NCBI GenBank assembly: GCA_963422375.2
Contig: OY729428.2
Span: 1,536,001-1,600,000 of the forward strand
Origin: Bryobacterales bacterium
Lineage (GTDB): Bacteria; Acidobacteriota; Terriglobia; Bryobacterales; UBA6623
Length of the DNA: 64,000 nt
Direction: 5' to 3'
The translations under genes and the position numbers were made by a program. Below are positions 31,478 to 45,725 of the stretch, piece by piece (positions within the stretch are counted from its first letter, which is position 1; every line of letters starts with the position of its first letter). The notes below the pieces were generated by a model. It made no database searches. It was not told where the DNA came from and saw nothing but the letters and a program-made list of their open reading frames with translations.

Positions 31478-32611
31478 TCAGGGCTGGACAGGTCGCTCGG
31501 CTTCTTCGTTCTTGAGAAGGTCTTTCTGTTCGGGATCTGTGTCCGTTCCTAGCTCGCCGGTTTGCACGGCCTCTACGGCTGGCGGGTCTACCCGCCCGGC
31601 TTCATCACGCGAACCACTGAATGCCGCAGATGCGAGCAATGCCACGATTATGGCAAAGAGTGCGAGCACAACGCCAAACATCCAGCGTGTGCTCCTGACT
31701 TCTGAACGCACGGCCCCCATCGTCGCAAGCATCTCCTTTTGGTAGAGCTTCCACTCCTTATCCTGCGCATCAAACCTTTCTCGAGTCGCCTTTTCCAAGC
31801 TCTCGAACCCGGCTCGTGTGGATTGCTCCAACTTGACCTGCGCCTCGCGGAGCCCCTGCATCTCCCGCTCCTGCGCTTCGAATCTGGCCTGCGTTACCGC
31901 TTCCAGCTTTTCGAACTTGGCCTGCGTCTTTTCTTCCAGCCTTTCGAACCCATCTTGAGTCGCCTTCTCCTGCGCCTCGAACCTGGCTTGCGTCTTCTCT
32001 TCCAGCCTATCGAACCTATCTTGAGTCGCCTTCTCCTGCGCCTCGAACCTGGCTTGCGTCTTCTCTTCCAGCGCCTCGAACCTATCTTCGGTCGCCTTCT
32101 CCTGCGTCTCGAACCTAGCCCGCGTCTTCTCTTCCAGCGCTTCGAACCCAGCTTGGGTGGATTGCTCCAACTTGACCTGCGCCTCGCGAAGCCCCCGCAT
32201 CTCCTGCCCTTGGGCCTCGAATTTAGCTTCCGTCACCCTCTCTTGGGATCTGAATCCGGCGCTCGTCTCCGACCGCCAAGCTTCGAGCAAGCTCCTGAGC
32301 TCTCTGTACTGAGAGTCTTGGCGCAGGCTCAGCGCATTGATCAATCCACGGGTCTCCGACTGCCACCCTTCCAGTAACGTGGTCAGATTCCTGTACTGGT
32401 CGGCCTGCTCTTGGAGTCTGTCTTCGACGGCAGAGATCCGGCCAATCAGCCGACCTTCAAGCTTGCTGGTCTTGTTGTCGACAATTCTCCCGAAGACCGC
32501 TTCCAAGTCCCGCTCCTCGTGAGGTTCTTGGTCCGCGGGAGAGTCGTCCACGAGATATGGCTGCTGCAGTGCGACTCTCTCGTCATCGGGAGGCTCGAGC
32601 ATCTCTTTCAC
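31478..32611 (-). CDS. Coiled-coil protein with 11-aa tandem repeats and a C-terminal TM anchor
   Basis: Alternating EEKTQARFEAQ / EKATQDRFxxL units; TM segment WMFGVVLALFAIIVALLASAAF. Confidence 0.75.
   Translation of the reverse strand: MKEMLEPPDDERVALQQPYLVDDSPADQEPHEERDLEAVFGRIVDNKTSKLEGRLIGRISAVEDRLQEQADQYRNLTTLLEGWQSETRGLINALSLRQDSQYRELRSLLEAWRSETSAGFRSQERVTEAKFEAQGQEMRGLREAQVKLEQSTQAGFEALEEKTRARFETQEKATEDRFEALEEKTQARFEAQEKATQDRFDRLEEKTQARFEAQEKATQDGFERLEEKTQAKFEKLEAVTQARFEAQEREMQGLREAQVKLEQSTRAGFESLEKATRERFDAQDKEWKLYQKEMLATMGAVRSEVRSTRWMFGVVLALFAIIVALLASAAFSGSRDEAGRVDPPAVEAVQTGELGTDTDPEQKDLLKNEEAERPVQP
31770..32230. repeat. Coding tandem repeat with 33/66-bp period
   Basis: Recurrent tcgaacctggcttgcgtcttctcttccagc and gtcgccttctcctgcg units; boundaries approximate. 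Confidence 0.85.
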
Positions 32612-32935: not shown

Positions 32936-33979
32936 CCTGATTACCCACAAGACTCAGCCAAGGTTAGGAGGCGGAAAGGCCTGGGCGGGGTGCGCACGGA
33001 GGCGTGGAGCAGGCGGGGGACCAGCGCCTCCAGGTGGTAGCGGCGGTTGAAGCGGTAGCGGAACTCGGCGAGGTAGCGCGGCAGGTGCTTGCCGTCGAGC
33101 GCATGGCAGGTTCCCGCCAGGGACTGCTTGACGTTCGCCGGCATCGTGTTGACCCGGAAGAAGCGGGAATCCCCGCAGCTCCGCTGCCCGCCTCCGGTGA
33201 CGGTCGGCACGTGCTCGCAGCCGGCGCCGGCCACGCCCCGGAAGCAGGCCGGGCCGTCGGAATGCACCTCCGTGCCGGGCTGCAAGTGCCGCCCGGCCCA
33301 CGCTGCCAGCGTCTTCTTGCGCAAGCCCGCCACGCTGCTCATGCGCATCCTTGCCGGCTGGCCGTCGGCGCTGACCTGCACGGCGGCGACGAACGGCGTC
33401 TTGCCCGCCGCGCCGCGACCGCGCTTGCCGCCGGTCCGCTCCCCGCCCCAGCAGGCGTCGTCCACCTGCACGATGCCGCCCGGCGGCACGCGCTCGTCGC
33501 GCTCCTTCATCACTTGCAAGAGCTTGTGCTTCACCTTCCAGGCCGTGTTCCGGCTGACCCCCAGCTGCCGCGCCAGTTCCAGCGACGAAACGCCGTGCTG
33601 GCCCTGCGTCAGCAGGTGGAGCGCCAGGAACCAGACGGTCAGCGGCAGCTGGGTGGCGGCGAAGATCGTGCCGGCGACGAGGGAGGTCTGGCGGTGGCAG
33701 GCATGACACTGCCAGAGCTTGCGGGAGCGGATGCGGCAGTGCCGTCAGGAGCCGCACTCCGGGCAGCGGAAGCCGTTCGTCCGCCGTCCGGCCAGCGGGC
33801 GTTGAAGACGGCGTGCTTGCATTGCCCCTCGCTGCCGTAGCGCTGCAGGAACTTGCCCAGGCTGAGTCCCTTCTGGAATTGCACGCGATTGCGTTTCATC
33901 TGCTAGCCCCTTTCCTGTCAGAGATTTCCGACCTCCTCCAGTATAGCATATCCTCGGCTGACGTTCGTTGGTAATCAGG
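32936..33979 (-). mobile_element. IS1595-family element copy A (transposase frameshifted)
   Basis: Terminal IR CCTGATTACC/GGTAATCAGG; 8-bp TSD TAGTGATT (32928-32935, 33980-33987); transposase 33899-32941 with CPECG, VQVDDA, HSDG, RYLAEF; 11-bp insertion at 33772-33782. Confidence 0.95.
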
Positions 33980-35852: not shown

Positions 35853-36914
35853 TCATGCGACGTGCGCGCCTTGGGCCTCGACATAGGCGGCATACAGGCT
35901 CTGGCTTGCCGTCATGAACAGACGGTTTCTCTTGGCGCCGCCGAAGCAGACGTTGGAGCAGATTTCCGGGAGCCTGATCAAGCCGATCCGAGCGCCGTCC
36001 GGGGCGAAGACATGCACGCCGTCGTAGCCGTCCCCTACCCATCCGGCCGAGGACCAGATGTTGCCGTCGGTGTCGCACCGAATGCCGTCGGCTTGGCCTG
36101 CCTGTTCGAATCCGTCCATGCGCATGGACGCGAAGCTCCGGCCCTTGCGAAGAGTGCCGCCGCCTTCCACGTCCCAGACCTTGATCTGGCGCTCGGCCTC
36201 CGGGTAGTGCGAGGCGCCGGTGTCGGCCACGTACAGCAGCTTGTAGTCGGGCGAGAAGCATAGACCATTGGGCTTGTAGATGTCGTCTGCGACGAGATCC
36301 ATCTTGCCGGTGGCTCCGTCAATGCGGTAGACGGCCTCCTTGACTTCCAGAGGCCCCTTGTTGCCCTCGTAGTGCATCAGGCTACCGTAGCCCGGGTCGG
36401 TGAACCAGATGTTCCCCTCGGGGTCGACAACGACGTCGTTCGGGGCGTTCAGGGGCTTGCCCTGCCACCGGTCTGCCAGCACGGTCACCGTTCCGTCGTG
36501 CTCGTAGCGCACCACGCGGCGATTGCCGTGCTCGCAGGAGAGCTGCCGGCCCGACCAGTCGAACGTGTTGCCGTTCGAGTTACCGGAGGGATTCCGGAAG
36601 ACGCTGACGTGTCCGTCCTCGTCCAGCCAGCGCATCTGCACGTTGTTCGGGATGTCGGAATAGACCAGATACCGTCCGACAGCGTTCCAAGCGGGGCCCT
36701 CCGCCCAGAGGGTGCCGACATGCAGCCTCTGGATGGGCGTGTTTCCGAGCTTGTACTTGTCGAAGCGCTGGTCCAGCGAAACGATGTCGGGATCGGGATA
36801 CCGCGTCGGGCTGGCGTTGGTCCAGTCGCGCTGCGCCAGCGCTTGGACGGAAGCCGCAGCCACGCCCGCGACCGAAGTCACGAAAGTGCGACGATTGATG
36901 GGATGCGATGCCAT
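35853..36914 (-). CDS. SMP-30/gluconolactonase family protein (Tat signal)
   Basis: NRRTFV signal, WAEGPAW, LNAPNDVV, PNGLCFSPD, ADGIRCD. Confidence 0.92.
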   Translation of the reverse strand: MASHPINRRTFVTSVAGVAAASVQALAQRDWTNASPTRYPDPDIVSLDQRFDKYKLGNTPIQRLHVGTLWAEGPAWNAVGRYLVYSDIPNNVQMRWLDEDGHVSVFRNPSGNSNGNTFDWSGRQLSCEHGNRRVVRYEHDGTVTVLADRWQGKPLNAPNDVVVDPEGNIWFTDPGYGSLMHYEGNKGPLEVKEAVYRIDGATGKMDLVADDIYKPNGLCFSPDYKLLYVADTGASHYPEAERQIKVWDVEGGGTLRKGRSFASMRMDGFEQAGQADGIRCDTDGNIWSSAGWVGDGYDGVHVFAPDGARIGLIRLPEICSNVCFGGAKRNRLFMTASQSLYAAYVEAQGAHVA

Positions 36915-37558
36915 TGCAATGCAACTGTACCAGATCGAACGTCTTGACGGCGAAGTACGCAAACCCGGTTGGTACAAGCGGGCGGGATCCAGCATGCCGG
37001 ACAGGCCAGGCTAGCCACGCCTTCGATGCCGGCCCCGGACAAACCAGCCGAGCACATCTCAGGGGACGGAGAAAGCCGCGATCGGAATCAGCCCGGCGTC
37101 GACTGGACCAGACCTCCGACGCCCGTGGTGTTCAACGCATTCCAAACCTCGTCACCGTACAGCATACGAATCAAATCGGCTGCGCATGTTGCACCAAGGG
37201 AGACCCTGCTGGTCCGACCGCAAGAATGACTTGCCAACTCTAGGCGAACCCTCGGCGGACGCATTTCGTCTTGGAGAAGGAAGATTCCGAATCGGGTTTA
37301 CCAAGGACCGACATTGATTGGCCGGATAACCGGTGGCACGACGGGACGACTAATTACGAAATATCGAGTTTCACACAATTCTTGAGAGCCTTAAAGAAGC
37401 CGGAATGTCACTTGAATCTGCGCTGCGACGCGAACTGCTCGACCATCCTTCATGCCTGGTGCGAACTTCCATTGCTTGATGGCTTCAATTGCCTTTTCGT
37501 CTAGACCGTGGCCCAAGGTGCGTAGTACACGGATGTTGTGAGCCTTTCCGTCTTCCCA

Positions 37559-38972
37559 CGCCCATGCAACTCCGAAGTGCGACACGCGCCGAGCCACAAG
37601 ATGGCAGGGAGGGGAGAGGGGGGGCAGCGAGCGGTGGTGTGGCGGCAGTAGGCTGGTAGGTGCTGGAAGGAGCAGGGAGGCGGATGCGGAAGAGCTACAC
37701 GCACGTGAGGCAGGAGGAGCGCTGCCGGAGCGAGACGCTGCGGGCGGCGGGCTGGGGAGCGGACAGGATCGCCGGGCAGCCGGGCCGCAAGCGGGCCACG
37801 ATCTACCGGGAAGTGGGCCGCAACGGCCGACCGGCGGAGGGCGAGCGCGCGGCGAGCTACAGCTTGGGGAGCGCGCAGGAGCGCGCGGAGCGGCGGCGGA
37901 GCGGCGGCGGCGCGCGGCGTCGTGCCGGCCGCGCCAGCTGACGTCGGCGCTGCGGACGCGGAGCGAGGACTGCCTGCGGCAGGACTGGAGCCCGGAGCAG
38001 GTCGCGGCGCGGCTGCAGCGGGAAGGGGCGCTGGAGATCAGCCCTGAACGGATCTACCAGCTGGTGCGCGCGGAGCGGCGGCAGGGGGGCCGGCTGTACC
38101 GGCACCCGAGGCAGGGCGGCCGCAAGCGCGTGCGGCGGGTCGGCCGGACGGCGGGCCGCGGCCTGATCCCGGGGCGCGCGGACATCGCGGAGCGCCCGGC
38201 GGAGGCGCGAGCGCAGGCGCGCGTCGGAGAGCGGGAGGTCGACACCGTGATCGGCGGGCAGCGCCGCGGGGCGCTGGTGACGCTGGTGGACCGGTTCTCC
38301 AAGTACCTGCTAGTGCAGCCGGTGAGCCGGCGCACGGCGCAGCTGGTCGGGGCGGCGATGACGGCCATGCTCGCAGGGAGCGGGGCCGTGACGCACACGC
38401 TCACGGCCGACAACGGCAAGGAGTTCGCGGCAAGGAGTTCGCGGCAAGGAGTTCGCGGCAAGGAGTTCGCGGGGCACCGGGAGGCACCGGGAGGTGGCGC
38501 AGCGGCTGGGGGCGGGCTTCTACTTCGCGCGGCCCTGCCACTCCTGGGAGCGCGGGCTGAACGAGCCTGCCAACGGGCTGCCGCGGCAGTACTGCCCGCA
38601 GGGGACGGACCTGCGGCGGGTGGACCCGGCCCGGGTGCGGGAGGCGCGGGACCGCCTGAACCGGCGTCCGCGGAAGGTGCCGGGCGGGCGCACGCCGGAG
38701 GAAGTCTTCCCGGCGGAGCGGGAGCGGGTGCCGCGGGGCTGAGGCAGGGCTGGCAGCCCGCCGCGGGGACAGGGGCGCGGGGGAGCTGCGCCCGGACAGG
38801 CCCGGAGGGTCCCCGTTCCGGAAACGGGGCACGCATGCCCGCCTGCCCGGGACGCGGCCCCCGCTTCGGCCCGGCAGCGGCTTGTCCGGCGCCGCTGGAT
38901 CTGCTACTGTGGTCCTAGTATCCCAGCCCACCGCCCCTTACCCGCGTGTCGCACTTCGGAGTTGAATGGGCG
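37559..38972 (+). mobile_element. IS30-family element (transposase multiply frameshifted)
   Basis: 30-bp IR CGCCCAT(G/T)CAACTCCGAAGTGCGACACGCG with 1 mismatch; 3-bp TSD CCA; HTH TIYREVGRN, EVDTVIG, DNGKEF, SWERGLNE, LNRRPRK. Confidence 0.93.
38415..38492. repeat. Tandem repeats (GGCAAGGAGTTCGC)x4 and (GGCACCGGGA)x2 inside the IS30 transposase
   Basis: Read directly from the sequence. Confidence 0.95.
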
Positions 38973-39220
38973 CCAAATTTCAACTGCCAGCATCACCGTG
39001 CCCTGAATCTTGGCTTTGCGTGCTTGTTCGGAATACTCTGGTTCCACTTTGAACAGGAGGCGGGGACTAGTGACAGATCCGCCAATGGTATGCCCATTAG
39101 GAGGGTCTGTTACAGAATTCGTCCCGCTATCCGGTGTTTCTATAGTACCGTCATCCGGCAGGATCACCAATGTCACAAGTACCTTCGGACCGCCGTCTCG
39201 ACGAGCCACGTCATTCGAAA

Positions 39221-40735
39221 GGGAATTATATATCTGAGTGCCGAGGCAACCGATTTTGCAAATTATCAGTCCATAAATTAATTTCATATTTCTTCCGGAG
39301 ATCTGTTGACAGTTGGTGGATTATTTTGGTAGAATAGTTCCAATATATGAGGTCGTCTATGAAGCAGAAAGGTCCCGGGAAGTGGTTTCGTAAAGGCATC
39401 ACTATGATTGAAGTGATCGCCATGTTCCGCGATGACGAATCCGCGGAAAAGTGGTTCGCCTCCATGCGCTGGCCGGACGGTCCGGTATGCCCCCACTGCC
39501 GCGGCTCCAGCGTGCAGTCCGGCACGGCCCACCCTTCGATGCCGTACCGTTGCCGCGGCTGCGGCAAGCGCTTTTCGGTGCGCACCGGCAGCGTGATGGC
39601 CGACACCAAGCTCGGCTACCGCACCTGGGCCGTCGCCCTGTTCCTGCCGACCACCGGCATCAAGGGTGTCTCGAGCATGAAGCTGCACCGCGACCTAGGC
39701 ATCAGCCGGAAGTCGGCCTGGCACCTGGCGCACCGCATCCGCGCGTGCTGGGAGCGGGATCAGGGCCTGTTCGCCGGCCCGGTGGAGGTGGACGAGACCT
39801 ACGTCGGCGGCAAGGAGCGCAACAAGCACGAGAGCAAGAAGGCCCGCGCCGGGCGCGGGCCCGTCGGCAAGACGCCCGTGGCGGGGGCGCGGGACCGCGC
39901 CACGAACGCAGTGGCCGCGCGGCCGCTGCCGGGCACCGCCAAGGGCGACCTGCAGGGCTTCGTGCGCGGCCGGGTCGCGCCGGGGGCGCAGGTCCGCTCC
40001 GACGAGGCGGCGGCCTGCGCCGGCATGGAGGAGTTCTCGCACGAAGCCGTCAGGCACTCCGGCGGCGAGTACGTGCGCGGGGCGGCGCATACGAACGGCA
40101 TCGAGTCGTTTTGGTCCCTGTTCAAGCGCGGCCTGTACGGCACCTATCACCGGATGAGCGTCCGTCATCTCGGCCGCTACCTGACGGAGTTCGCGGGACG
40201 GTGCAACGACCGCGACTGCGACACGGCGGAACGGATGCGGCGCATGGCGCGGGGCCTGGTCGGCCGGACGCTGACCTGCCGGCAGCTGACCGGCAAGGCC
40301 GCGGTCGCGGCCCGAGCGGCGCCCTCCGAGCTGAGCGCCGCAGCCCGCTGCCGACGCACTCTTCACGCTCGATGCGCTTCACGCTCGGTGCGCGGGTCGC
40401 GCCGGCTCTGGAATCCCCCGGCGCGACCCGCGTCCGGCCCGGCCCGTCCATGCAGGCCGTCGAGCGCCGGGGATCCGCTGTCTTCGGCCCTCGGAGGGCA
40501 CGCAATCAGCTTGCAAGGGGCGCCCTCCACCGCCAACCGGATTCCACCAGGCATGCGAGAGGGCCTCTCTAATCCGTGCCTCGTCCATTCCGCTGGCAGG
40601 CTCGATTCAGATACGATCCCACTTTTCCGTGCCTACCGCGGCCGCATTCGAATGACCCCAGCCAGACGCCGACCTCCCTGCTCAGAGCAGTTCTCGTCGG
40701 ACATGGCGTTGTCGGCACTCAGATATATAATTCCC
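39221..40735 (+). mobile_element. IS1595-family element (second type) with ~400 bp of extra 3' sequence
   Basis: 24-bp perfect IR GGGAATTATATATCTGAGTGCCGA; 8-bp TSD ATTCGAAA; transposase from 39347 with CPHC..CRGC, VEVDETYVGG, HTNGIESFW; probable stop TGA changed to CGA at 40313. Confidence 0.95.
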
Positions 40736-41039
40736 ATTCGAAAGACCTTGGGAAAACGGAATGACAGTCAATTCACCGCTGTATGTGCCGGGAACAAGCC
40801 CAATACCACTAGCGCTAACTCCTACTGTCGAAACTCCGTCTCCCGCAATGGATTGACCTTGTGGATAGGCACGAAGCCACCCTTGGTTGGAATCAAGGTA
40901 ATAATTTGTCGATCCCTGACCCTCGTGAACTAGAGTGACTTGCTGTTGAGGTGCTTCACGCCCCAACAAGGAGACGAAGGTCAACGCTCTGGATATCACT
41001 TGGGTCACTCTTGAGGGTGGGCTAGAATCCATTCGGATA

Positions 41040-42071
41040 CCTGATTACCAACGAACGTCAGCCGAGGATATGCTATACTGAAGGAGGTCGGAAATCTCTG
41101 ATAGGAAAGGGGATAGCAGATGAAAAGCAATCGCGTGCAATTCCAGCAGGGACTCAGCCTGGGCAAGTTCCTGCAGCGCTACGGCAGCGAGGGGCCATGC
41201 GAGCACGCCGTCTTCAAGGCCCGCTGGCCGGACGGCTTCCGCTGCCCGGAGTGCGGCTCCCGGCGGCACTGCCGCATCCGCTCCCGCAAGCTCTGGCAGT
41301 GCCATGCCTGCCACCGCCGGACCTCCCTCGTCGCCGGCACGATCTTGGCCGCCACCAAGCTGCCGCTGACCGTCCGGTTCCTGGCGCTTCACCTGCTGAC
41401 GCAGGGCAAGCACGGCGTTTCGTCGCTGGAACTGGCGCGGCAGCCGGGGGTCAGCCGGAACACGGCCTGGAAGATGAAGCACAAGCTCTTGCAAGTGATG
41501 AAGGAGCGCGACGAGCGCCTGCCGCTGGGCGGCATCGTGCAGGTGGACGACGCTTACTGGGGCGGGGAGCGGACCGGCGGCAAGCGCGGTCGCGGCGCGG
41601 CGGGCAAGACGCCGTTCGTGGCCGCCGTGCAGGTCACCGCCGCCGGCCAGCCGGCAAGGATGCGCCTGAGCAGCGTGGCGGGCTTGCGCAAGAAGACGCT
41701 GGCAGCGTGGGCCGGGCGGCACTTGCAGCCCGGCACGGAGGTGCATTCCGACGGCTTGGCCTGCTTCCGGGGCGTGGCCGACGCCGGCTGCGAGCACGTG
41801 CCGGCCGTCACCGGAGGCGGGCAGCGGAGCTGCGGGGATTCCCGCTTCGTCCGGGTCAGCACGATGCTGGCGAACGTCAAGCAGTCCCTGGCGGGAACCT
41901 GCCATGCGCTCGACGGCAAGCACCTGCCGCGCTACCTCGCCGAGTTCCGCTACCGCTTCAACCGCCGCTACGATCCGGAGGCGCTGGTCCCCCGCCTGCT
42001 CCACGCCTCCGTGCGCACCCCGCCCAGGCCTTACCGCCTCCTAACCTTGGCGGAGTCTTGGGGTAATCAGG
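41040..42071 (+). mobile_element. IS1595-family element copy B (transposase 41120-42088, nearly intact)
   Basis: Same IR as copy A; 8-bp TSD TTCGGATA (41032-41039, 42072-42079); 1 bp shorter near the 3' end, so the ORF reads past the IR stop. Confidence 0.95.
41071..41079 (+). promoter_or_regulatory. Extended -10 promoter of the IS1595 transposase
   Basis: TGcTATACT about 40 nt upstream of ATG 41120; also present in copy A. Confidence 0.55.
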
Positions 42072-44435
42072 TTCGGATAAGGGCTTGAATCGTGCCGTGA
42101 ATCGGTGCGTATGGTGTATGGACGACAAGGCCTATGTTATAAGATCCAGGCCTGAGCGGAGGGGTCGACCGTTCAGTGATTGAGATCGACTCACTTGCAC
42201 CGCGTGTGGTCGCCTCATGATCGGCGTAGAATATAGGAGTGTTACGGTCTTCGGCATAGTCCCACGAAACTGGAATGTCTCGTCGTAGATAAAGATCGAC
42301 CTCTGCCGAGGAGTTGTTTTCGGAACGGAATGTAACCGTCAGCTCGTTCGCACCAGGTGGTACATGGACACGATAGCTTCCCTCTTGAAAGAATGTCTCA
42401 AACGTGAAGTTCGTACTTGGGAGGAGCACGCGCTCGCGTATGCCTGGACGCAGCTCCATTGCACGCGAGAACACCGCCTCAACATGCGTCGGGCCCTCAA
42501 TTGCAACCTGCTTTCTTGATAGGATTCCACTCAAATCACCTTCCAATCGTACGAAGCTCCATCCCGAGTTGGGTCGTGTCTTTATGGAGACGACGTCGCC
42601 TGCAGCATAGAACCCGTCTCCCGACGGCGGGTCATACTTCGCCGGAATCGACCGGTCTGACGCTCGTGATGACCTTGTGCTCTGTCAATGCTGTGAGTGT
42701 GATCTCGCCACCCGAAGCTGGCACGTGAATTCTGTGCGAAATCTCACCTCCATCGCTCCAGCTCTGAAAGCGATGACGCGTTCCGTGAGTGTGTCCCGTC
42801 TGTAGTTCCGGAACACTCAATTCAAGCCCGTTTCGGTAGTGCTGAGGCTCCAAGGCAATCGGCGTGTAGTTCCACCAATCGTTAATATTAACGCGAGTAG
42901 GATCTATGTTCGATCTGATCAAGAACTGCGGACCACGGCTGAATACAGCTCTGTATTCTGCGGAATGATGCAGGATAAATGATGCTGGATTTGCTGACAG
43001 ACCTTGGCGCGAAAAACCCCAAGATCCACCACTCCATGATCGAAATGTGTAGTACTGGGGTTGGTTGGGTCTACCCGAAATCTGAACCGGCGTTCGCAAT
43101 GTGTAGAAACCGTCCGGCGACTCTGGGGCTACTCTTACAGTACCGACATCTTGGGGCTGTGAAGACGCTTCGATTCTATGCTGGACAATGAAGTTCGCCT
43201 CAATCCAAGTGTTACTTCCATCGAACGATATGACTTTCCTAGAGGAAGAGCCGCCGAAGTTCCATCGGCCGAAAAGAGAGCGACTACTGCCGTTCGTCTG
43301 TACTACAGGAGCTTCCAGTACATGCTCGCTACCAACTGACCAGCGGAATTTCTGTGGCGTGGTTACGCGGCGACCATCGACAACAATATCCAACCCAGGG
43401 GGATTTGTCGACAAGGTAGTTACTAGTGGAACTCTTCCATAGAGGCGAGCAACACCGTCGACATCACCGGCAGACAGGTATCCTTCACCGGCAGACAGGG
43501 ATACGCTTCCGACAAGCATCCCCGGAGGGATGGTCTCCAAGACTGGCTTGCCATTGCGGGAGAACAAGTAGGGACTGTAATGCATGGTTGAGGAAAAATC
43601 GTATGGTCCTGTTGCAGGGTGGACTGTAGGGAGAACCGAAAGTCTGCCTGCAGGGTCAAGGTTGTTCTCCAAGACCATAACATACGCTTCGCGGTCTTCG
43701 CGCTCATGCTCGTGCCAAAGACCTACAGCGTGGCCGATCTCATGCACTGCAGGATCGACTCCGCACCTTGCCATGAGGTTGATGACTTGCTCACCCCCGA
43801 TCCTTCCGACGTGCGAGTTACACGTTGAGTTGTGGTGTCGGAATCGAACATAATCGTCTTCGACTGTCCGTTCGATTAGCGTGATTGCTGTTCTTGTGTT
43901 CCACTCTGAAATTGCGTCTAGGATTCTTTGCGTATCGGGTACGTCTGAGTCAATAATATACGGGACAACGCCGTTTGGCCACAAGGCATCAGAGTCCGTG
44001 ACTGAAACGTTCCGAGGCGGGATCCAGTTACGTTGCTTGGGCGGAACGGCTCTGATTCCTGCCCTCTGGACTTCTTCGGCCGTCCCAAGGATCATATCGC
44101 CGTGGACCGCCATCCCGTCGACAACGCGATAGGGCAGAGTCCGTCCACGGAAGACAGTGACGCCGTATTCTTTCTCTCCGGGGTTCTGTGAGGCAATGCT
44201 GCCGTGATCGAGTTGTGATTCGAACGGTGATGCAATTCTCTGCTGACCGAATCCACTGTCAATACACAATGCAGCCGCTAGGGCGGGCACGACGCCCACG
44301 TAAAGCCAACTTCGAAACCGGCGAATGACTGGCCCGTAACTTAGCTTGCAGTGCAAGCCAATCTCTATTATATATCATCGCAACTCGTAGCCTCGATGCG
44401 CGATTCCTGTCGCCGCAGGCTCCACACTTGAGTCG

Positions 44436-45725
44436 CTAAAGCAAGCGGAAGCTCACTTGAATCTGTGCCGCGACACGGACTGGCTTGCCATCCTTCTTTC
44501 CGGGCGAGAACTTCCATTGCTTGACTGCTTCGACCGCCTTCTCGTCCAAGCCAAGTCCCAGGCTGCGCAGCACGCGGATGTTGTGCGCTACTCCGTCCTC
44601 CCACACTTCCACGGCAAGCATAACCGTCCCTTGGTACTTCGCCTTGCGCGCCTCTTCAGAGTATTCCGGCTCTACCTTGTAGAGCAGGCGCGGACTGGTC
44701 ACGCCGCCGCCGATGCGGAACACGCCGCCGCCGATGCCACCGCCGGAGCCGGGTCCGACGCCCGAACCCCTCCCGGACCCGACACCCGTGCCGCGTCCGG
44801 ACCCGATGCCGCCGCCCGTTCCCGGACCGGCCGACGGCGGTCCGTCCGCCCCGAACGGATCGCCGAATACCGAGAGATCCACATCCGGCAAGCTGATCTC
44901 CGGGGGCACGCGAACCGTGGGCTCGACGGCGAGCTTCGGGTTCTCGTTCCGGATGACTGGCGTGGGAGGGGCCAGCTGCGGCTCCAAGGAGAATCGCGGC
45001 AGCTTGCCGCGGCTCGCCGGAAGCGGGGAGTTGGCCCCGCCCCCGCCTCCGCCCCCGCTGTCCCGCGGATCCGGCCGTGCGGGCGCGCGCAGCTGGGCAA
45101 GGTAGGGCGATACGTCCACGGGGATGATCAGCGTGACCGTGCCCCGGTTCAACTCGCCGAGGTCGCGGTCCGGGAGTCCGAACATCAGCAGGACGAAGAG
45201 CAAGTGAGCCGCCAAGGTAACCGCCATGCCTTGCCTACGGTGGCTCAAGTCCCCCCAGATCTCCTTGACCCGGACCGGCTTCGAGCTCAGCTTGAGCGGC
45301 GGGGCTTTCCGGAACTCCCGATCGAGCCTGTAGCTTTCGTGGATGCCGGACCACCACGGCATCGCCAAGGTCCCGAGCCCGAGCGGAGGCAGGCTCGGCT
45401 CGCCGGGCAGAGGCGGCCGGTACGAAGGCAGGGGAGGAAGCCCCTTGGCCTCGCTTAGCGTGCGGAGCGTTTCGGTTATGCCAAGCCACCAAGGCCTGCT
45501 CAGCGAATAGACGTTGGGATCCCTGAAGTCCGTTTCGCCTGGCTCGGCCGGGCGATACGTCGGAAGCGGGCCGAACTTCGGCGGCTGAAGGATCTCTCTG
45601 GCCGAGTCGAGGCAAAGCGACCACCACGGCTCGTGGATGGAGTCGATCACAAGCGGGCCCAGACCCCGGTGTTGCGCTAGTCTCTTTTCGACGGCTGCCG
45701 GCTGGTTGGAGTCGGACATGTCCAC
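44436..45725 (-). CDS. tonB: Energy transducer TonB family protein
   Basis: TM segment with AHLL, Gly/Pro-rich linker, C-terminal KVEPEYSEEARKAKYQGTV...GLDEKAVEAVKQWKF. Confidence 0.9.
   Translation of the reverse strand: MDMSDSNQPAAVEKRLAQHRGLGPLVIDSIHEPWWSLCLDSAREILQPPKFGPLPTYRPAEPGETDFRDPNVYSLSRPWWLGITETLRTLSEAKGLPPLPSYRPPLPGEPSLPPLGLGTLAMPWWSGIHESYRLDREFRKAPPLKLSSKPVRVKEIWGDLSHRRQGMAVTLAAHLLFVLLMFGLPDRDLGELNRGTVTLIIPVDVSPYLAQLRAPARPDPRDSGGGGGGGANSPLPASRGKLPRFSLEPQLAPPTPVIRNENPKLAVEPTVRVPPEISLPDVDLSVFGDPFGADGPPSAGPGTGGGIGSGRGTGVGSGRGSGVGPGSGGGIGGGVFRIGGGVTSPRLLYKVEPEYSEEARKAKYQGTVMLAVEVWEDGVAHNIRVLRSLGLGLDEKAVEAVKQWKFSPGKKDGKPVRVAAQIQVSFRLL

Follow-up and report, generated by a model that had tools for sequence, protein, structure and literature searches.

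The window analyzed here is a 64,000-nucleotide stretch of the genome of a Bryobacterales bacterium (GCA_963422375.2, contig OY729428.2, positions 1,536,001-1,600,000; genome G000), and all coordinates given without a locus label are positions in this window. On its minus strand lies a tonB gene (44436..45725, 429 amino acids) with one hydrophobic segment carrying a TLAAH motif (the transmembrane motif was judged by eye), a Pro/Gly linker, and a TonB_C domain (PF03544 at amino acids 352-428; the last 92 amino acids correspond to 44439-44714). Downstream on the same strand, behind a gap of 79 bp (44357..44435, minus strand), is a broken gene that runs from 44356 to 37391 and fuses an astacin protease to a second TonB_C domain. 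The subject of this work is this C-terminal tail: its relationship to tonB, the selection that acted on it, and its probable role.

The architecture of the fusion is astacin, immunoglobulin (Ig)-like repeats, a BACON-like domain, and TonB_C. Its 5' part (42632..44356, minus strand; 574 amino acids, TTG start at 44356) consists of a signal-peptide-like start at about amino acids 1-37 (judged by eye), the astacin domain at amino acids 126-278 (PF01400, E 2e-31, 109.5 bits versus a cut-off of 22.5), and Ig-like repeats, and ends at a frameshift. Astacins (M12A) are characterized by the HExxHxxGxxH zinc motif and the SxMHY Met-turn; in the sequence of this gene, the zinc-binding motif is intact (HEIGHAVGLWH, 43712..43744, minus strand) and is followed by the Met-turn STMHY. 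The LegP equivalog model NF045530 scored 173 bits, under its cut-off of 300, and this score reflects the common astacin domain. The gene continues in a second frame (42080..42684, minus strand) with a divergent InlB B-repeat (PF18998, E 8e-6) and a beta-sandwich domain recognized by homology to paralogs. An IS1595-family element (41040..42071, plus strand; 8-bp target duplication, 85 near-full genomic copies) separates this portion from a piece with the BACON-like Ig domain (40744..41039, minus strand; assigned by homology to BACON-bearing relatives). A second IS1595-family element (39221..40735, plus strand; 8-bp target duplication, 47 near-full genomic copies) is followed by a piece (38976..39220, minus strand) that includes the end of the BACON-like domain, a short linker, and the 5' part of the TonB_C tail (38976-39086). 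The tail itself is interrupted by an IS30-family element (37559..38972, plus strand; PF13936 and PF00665, 3-bp target duplication, 9 near-full copies), beyond which its 3' part and the stop codon are found (37391..37558, minus strand; PF03544, E 1e-13). The other edge of the inserted stretch is formed by an SMP-30/gluconolactonase gene (35853..36914, minus strand; PF08450), which comes after tonB in relatives.

The gene is thus broken by one frameshift (near 42632-42684) and three insertion sequences with clean target duplications; its pieces are in register and contain no other stops. An assembly artefact was rejected because contigs of the runs X1 and X5, one of which may be the source sample, cross the frameshift without differences and contain the insertion junctions. 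Small pieces from run X6 are consistent with the same broken allele, no joint skipping a whole insertion element was found among the joints listed, and run X12 contributed no reads. The copy in this window is therefore a pseudogene, non-functional today. An orphan 253-bp copy, 98.4% identical to the middle of the astacin gene (approximately 43165-43417), lies about 100 kb away (G000:C2:1677094-1677346), and the read depth is doubled over the matching part.

The last 92 amino acids of the fusion and of TonB are identical at 77 positions (84%), the number given in the initial annotation. The nucleotide identity is 72.8%, and the 75 differences are distributed over the codon positions as 13/9/53, so that the extensive third-position divergence described there also holds. 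The proportion of synonymous differences (pS) is 0.80 and that of nonsynonymous differences (pN) 0.099, with a pN/pS of 0.12 (bootstrap 95% 0.07-0.19); at a pS of 0.80 the synonymous sites are saturated, making a correction to dS impossible. The final strand, AAQIQVTFRLL, is preserved in the tail, as are the equivalents of Escherichia coli TonB Y163, G186, W213, and Y215, the residues named as important in one study (10.1101/2021.12.08.471779). Among the 11 PF03544 matches in the genome, the adjacent tonB is by far the nearest to the tail. The domains next most similar to tonB are kinase repeats (58-64%) and a TPR-TonB protein (51%); hence, the genome holds no set of unlinked TonB_C domains equally similar, the other tonB-like domains reaching at most 64%. 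The 84% identity of the tail is nevertheless below that of every tonB orthologue of the genus to this tonB (85-99%, 30 of 30 genomes).

Pairwise dN/dS alone is insufficient to demonstrate selection on the tail because tonB orthologues that are one residue apart (pN 0.01) have already reached a pS of 0.72. We therefore relied on a codon model that gave the tail branch a rate of its own (12 sequences, two fixed trees, custom script). The dN/dS ratio (omega) on this branch was 0.044 or 0.025 in the two placements of the tail, compared to a tonB background of 0.007, and omega = 1 was rejected in both (p 1.3e-5 and 1.3e-7). Out of 5000 neutral simulations, 2866 gained a stop; the 15 substitutions in the tail were more conservative than those in 2131 of the 2134 stop-free simulations. 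Only 3 of the 43 columns that are invariant across tonB orthologues changed in the tail. Taken together, the branch omega and the conservative substitutions show that the tail is clearly conserved: purifying selection acted along the branch leading to it, although relaxed relative to tonB. The purifying selection proposed in the initial annotation is thereby confirmed.

The tonB gene is a core gene with orthologues in all 30 genomes of the genus. The best matches of the tail are the tonBs of this genome and of genomes G023, G004, and G021, each with 77 of 92 identical residues, versus 60-72 for other astacin tails. These similarities support the derivation of the tail from the core tonB lineage of the genus, and within it from this subclade, but not demonstrably from the adjacent copy. 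The synonymous distance of the tail to all 53 tonBs is saturated (0.63-0.90), with the genome's own tonB ranking 44th by synonymous distance and 2nd by amino-acid distance. The two placements of the tail in the codon model fit equally well, that as sister to its own tonB not being preferred; in the tail phylogeny, this sister relationship was not rejected either (p of the approximately unbiased test [p-AU] 0.80). With the placements tied and a synonymous rank of 44 of 53, the adjacent tonB cannot be singled out as the source; of the earlier claim that the fused domain is a paralog of its neighbor, membership in the tonB lineage is the part that is supported. A recent tandem duplication of the adjacent tonB was rejected given the saturation of synonymous sites. 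A search for crossovers within the tail gave a weak hint in its 3' third only.

With regard to origin, rather than function, we give somewhat less than an even chance to the view that the fusion came fully formed from a related lineage and inserted into the gap after tonB, a site tolerant of insertions, instead of being built from the neighbor. The GC content at third codon positions (GC3) is 0.50-0.54 over the astacin gene and its tail compared to 0.81 in tonB, which is compatible with arrival of the whole gene from elsewhere. No synonymous trace of the adjacent tonB copy is present in the tail; the gap behind tonB contains inserts that differ among relatives, and the gene after it has a promoter-like motif of its own; and genome G043 carries a non-orthologous tailed astacin, inverted, in the same gap. 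Local construction is instead favored by the best protein matches, which are the tonBs of this genome's subclade, and by G041 and G007, where the additional TonB_C genes after tonB trace to the tonBs of their own genomes. It is also weakly favored by the last third of the tail, where 13 of 23 codons are common with the own tonB and only 2 of 30 orthologues equal or exceed this number (one of three sections compared).

The neighborhoods of tonB were compared in 17 of the 30 relatives, and the recurring order is dsd-ridA-tonB-(gap)-gluconolactonase (SGL)-sulfatase. In one of the 17 (G043), the gap behind tonB contains an astacin gene, which is inverted and lies at a distance of 6.4 kb; in three (G043, G041, and G007), an additional TonB_C gene sits shortly after tonB. 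The fusions of G007, G008, G019, and G023 are far from tonB or on other contigs. A conserved tonB-astacin synteny was accordingly rejected: the near-tonB placement recurs in only one of the five other genomes of the genus with such a gene, and there in the opposite orientation. No boundary repeat and no homology of the flanks to relatives were found. The 79-bp gap contains no terminator-like site, and read-through from tonB into the astacin gene is possible; a TATAAT (44367-44372), 10 nucleotides ahead of the astacin TTG, is a candidate promoter of the gene itself, although a consensus scan did not call the site. The suggestion that tonB and the protease were co-transcribed accordingly found no support, the coupling to tonB not being conserved.

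Two further features of this region were noted. Ahead of the gluconolactonase gene, about 10-14 nucleotides before its ATG, is a TG(c/g)TAC-containing motif that is conserved in several relatives (36914-36935; L072, L073, L078, L079, and L084) and that we take to resemble an extended -10 box with a leaderless start. In G007, an inverted partial duplicate of tonB (L082:6394-7053; pS 0.08) with a new hydrophobic N-terminus lies 1.7 kb behind tonB and represents a young tail capture.

Intact astacin-TonB_C fusions are encoded by homologues labeled Bryobacterales by their sources: G008 (970 amino acids), G019 (992), G043 (1014), P0089 (983), and P0148 (1186). Apart from the copy described here, broken tailed astacins occur in G007, G023, and in one copy of G019. 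Given the intact versions in relatives, the fusion is not a one-off accident, and in this sense the earlier view that it is no chance by-product is borne out. In G019, two tailed astacins are arranged in tandem (L051:2060-7884). In G023, a TonB_C remnant lies just upstream of the tailed astacin (L055:6792-7019), echoing the TonB_C-astacin-TonB_C layout of this window.

Among the 240 homologues listed, 217 contain the BACON-like domain, after which 99 end, 36 continue with Soli_cterm (TIGR03437), 6 with TonB_C, and 76 with other tails. The C-terminal slot is interchangeable, being filled by TonB_C, Soli_cterm, other tails, or nothing, as judged from these domain arrangements. Trees of two astacin segments (47 and 34 rows, near-duplicates removed) both rejected a single clade of tailed astacins (p-AU 1e-63 and 1e-79), and orthology of the astacin parts of G000 and G043 was rejected as well (p-AU 1.3e-5). 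In the tree of all tails (81 rows after 14 long branches were dropped; 92 columns), a single clade of all non-tonB tails was rejected (p-AU 0.0017). TonB tips are also present on kinases, caspase-like/FGE proteins, thioredoxin, TPR, ankyrin, and M56 proteins, and on domains of no assigned family. When codon sharing was ranked among 31 tonBs, that of the genome carrying the tail came first for 5 of the 25 tails examined and for none of the 15 old control paralogs used (5 of the initial 20 were dropped for gaps). A family of 317- to 349-amino acid proteins combines an uncharacterized N-terminal domain with a TonB_C tail (L066:4531-5580, L067, L068, L069:2555-3508, and L070); its gene comes immediately after tonB in G041 and immediately after an astacin-Soli_cterm gene in G044.

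The intact fusions have an N-terminal signal-like segment or none. They lack a TonB-type anchor with its His motif and a Pro-rich linker, and only a short linker precedes the tail, for which TIGR01352 scored above its cut-off in the intact relatives and PF03544 matched too. Because TonB_C is present but the anchor and the Pro-rich linker are absent, the fusion is not a TonB energy transducer; the neighboring gene is. A structural model of the G043 fusion, modeled as a relative of this window's own protein, revealed an astacin domain (versus crayfish astacin, E 1e-13 and a template modeling score by target of 0.76), a string of beta-sandwiches, and a separately folded TonB_C (predicted local distance difference test score about 90), preceded by a short linker of low confidence. 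The affinity of TonB_C for TonB boxes reaches tens of nanomolar (PMC9022066), and unenergized TonB still binds transporters, its overexpression being dominant negative (10.1101/2021.12.08.471779). The genome contains 72 matches to the transporter-barrel family PF00593, none of them within the window; the nearest is about 2.4 kb before its start, some 40 kb from the astacin gene. A complex prediction for the G043 tail and the N-terminal region of one G043 transporter scored 0.01 (mark 0.32) and was counted neither way.

The binding of TonB boxes by TonB_C, the retained binding residues, and the 72 transporter-barrel matches suggest that a docking tag is the likely role of the tail. Our interpretation, to which we assign a probability of about 0.45, is that the gene broken here encoded an astacin protease whose conserved tip, from the core tonB lineage, would have served as an unenergized tag that kept the protease, predicted to be periplasmic, at TonB-dependent transporters. 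Since the protein is predicted to have its signal peptide cleaved off and to lack a membrane anchor, its tail would be able to bind TonB boxes, but ExbBD would be unable to pull on it. The tail would station the protease beneath ligand-loaded transporters, where the enzyme could cut incoming peptides or proteins, by analogy with FusC and PqqL, which do so without a tag. TonB and the protease would then plausibly be aimed at the same receptors. Secreted proteins may have received tails from tonB again and again at their interchangeable C-terminal slot, the gap behind tonB presumably being one landing place for such genes. In a broader and more speculative extension, which we regard as doubtful, core tonB would repeatedly have supplied this Bryobacterales family with a movable tag of 92 residues. 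Grafted onto soluble secreted enzymes (astacins, caspase-like proteins, and others), this tag would direct them to loaded TonB-dependent transporters, on the periplasmic side, independently of the Ton motor, and would couple proteolysis to import or export right at the transporter.

Several observations weigh against this interpretation. The TonB_C tail is rare (6 of the 240 homologues listed), and with 99 of the 217 homologues stopping directly behind the BACON-like domain, a tail is not required by the protease. A single clade of astacin tails was not rejected in the 92-column tail tree (p-AU 0.72), and the tails of G000 and G043 group together (support 98/82), so fewer origins with later shuffling are possible. 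When ranks up to three are considered, the own tonB is reached by 7 of 25 tails versus 2 of 15 controls, which is not significant (Fisher p 0.44), and for the tail in this window it ranks only 25th of 31 in codon sharing. No transporter gene was seen beside the fusions in the inspected loci, as assessed by BLAST to the proteins of the window and lists of open reading frames rather than a full family scan. The signal peptides were assigned from hydrophobicity and visual inspection alone, and the codon model, a custom script with fixed trees, takes no account of the GC3 shift (0.52 versus 0.74). Finally, the copy at hand is itself dead.

Astacins are usually extracellular, which counts in favor of an alternative, in our opinion unlikely, that the tail is an export aid, that is, a sorting signal to an Oar-like TonB-dependent transporter for secretion and one of several interchangeable C-terminal address modules. 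The tail takes the same slot as Soli_cterm (36 of the 217 homologues), and most PF00593 matches in this genome are in frames of 1000-1300 amino acids. The sorting role of Soli_cterm is, however, a guess (TIGR03437 was not found in our literature search), and untailed homologues are common. In Myxococcus, the Oar transporter is needed for secretion of the PopC protease, but the accessible portion of that work describes no TonB_C on PopC (PMC6434023), and at about 1000 amino acids the multidomain protein here is far bigger than PopC (50.8 kDa).

Binding to the envelope rather than to transporters, with the tail attaching to peptidoglycan or dimerizing with the host TonB tip, appears improbable. 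The TonB C-terminal domain dimerizes in vivo and might bind peptidoglycan, and yet the same source considers that the dimer has no firmly established physiological role (PMC9022066); a need to match the host TonB would explain tails tracking the host tonB sequence. We see little likelihood of a regulatory or quality-control role, in which the unenergized tail would compete with TonB for TonB boxes while the protease cuts stalled transporters in their plug or N-terminal extension. The tail has kept the binding strand, and the dominant-negative effect of overexpressed TonB mentioned above (10.1101/2021.12.08.471779) fits such competition, but the same tail is attached to non-proteolytic partners too (thioredoxin, kinase, and unassigned domains). 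A tolerated passenger, picked up through rearrangements close to tonB and retained solely because its misfolding would damage the host protein, would suit the rare and patchy tail, the several broken genes (G000, G007, G023, and one G019 copy), and the very high insertion-sequence load of the genome, but has a low probability because a stop before the tail would delete it cost-free, as in the 99 homologues that end there, and omega remained at 0.03-0.04 across more than one synonymous change per codon.

Among known systems, the fusion has several partial counterparts. TonB proteins with additional domains are known from annotation. The M56 peptidases are membrane proteins of the BlaR1 sensor-transducer type, whereas the fusion here has a soluble-type M12A astacin, a signal-peptide-like start, several Ig-like domains, and a tail 84% identical to the host TonB. 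Peptidase M56-TonB_C proteins, such as Bacteroides TonB1 and TonB10, resemble it in combining a protease domain and TonB_C in one chain and are described as functionally uncharacterized (PMC10350073). Protease-TonB_C fusions of the M56 type are thus already known; the astacin-TonB_C fusion described here is real, selected, and recurrent. In the Fus and YddB-PqqL systems, a periplasmic metalloprotease is proposed to act on proteins entering via a TonB-dependent transporter (PMC6793856). These are M16 proteases encoded by separate genes clustered with the transporter, in contrast to an M12A astacin with a fused TonB tip and no neighboring transporter seen in the inspected loci. Being M12A and not M16, the protease is not a member of the Fus-like family and would work like FusC or PqqL by analogy only. 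Oar and PopC of Myxococcus xanthus similarly link a secreted protease with a TonB-dependent transporter, but PopC is without a described TonB_C, and secretion there needs the complete Ton system (PMC6434023, accessible part).

The multidomain astacins of Bryobacterales (M12A, PF01400) share the zinc motif, Met-turn, fold, InlB-like repeats, and BACON-like domain with the protein encoded here, which differs in having TonB_C in the C-terminal slot instead of nothing, Soli_cterm, or other tails. The first 98 or so positions of the model for the myxochelin receptor MxcH (NF038079) match these TonB_C domains; this match, which is at the N-terminus of the receptor and scores far under the family cut-off, is a sign of TonB_C-like domains outside the inner-membrane TonB. 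A literature search, with most subscription papers and supplements outside its scope, found no publication combining TonB and astacin and none listing a fusion of this kind.

An anchor-less TonB tip under strong selection on a secreted protease separates the binding and pulling functions of TonB and suggests that binding without pulling may serve cells as an address label. If one donor gene has supplied tails repeatedly, this would represent domain shuffling in progress. Small constructs that lend themselves to direct tests are available from the intact relatives; this window's copy is only a fossil of the system. Elsewhere in the window, a 377-amino acid open reading frame (31478-32611) with 33-nucleotide repeats and a C-terminal hydrophobic segment has no Pfam match, and another IS1595 copy with an 8-bp target duplication is located at 32936-33979.

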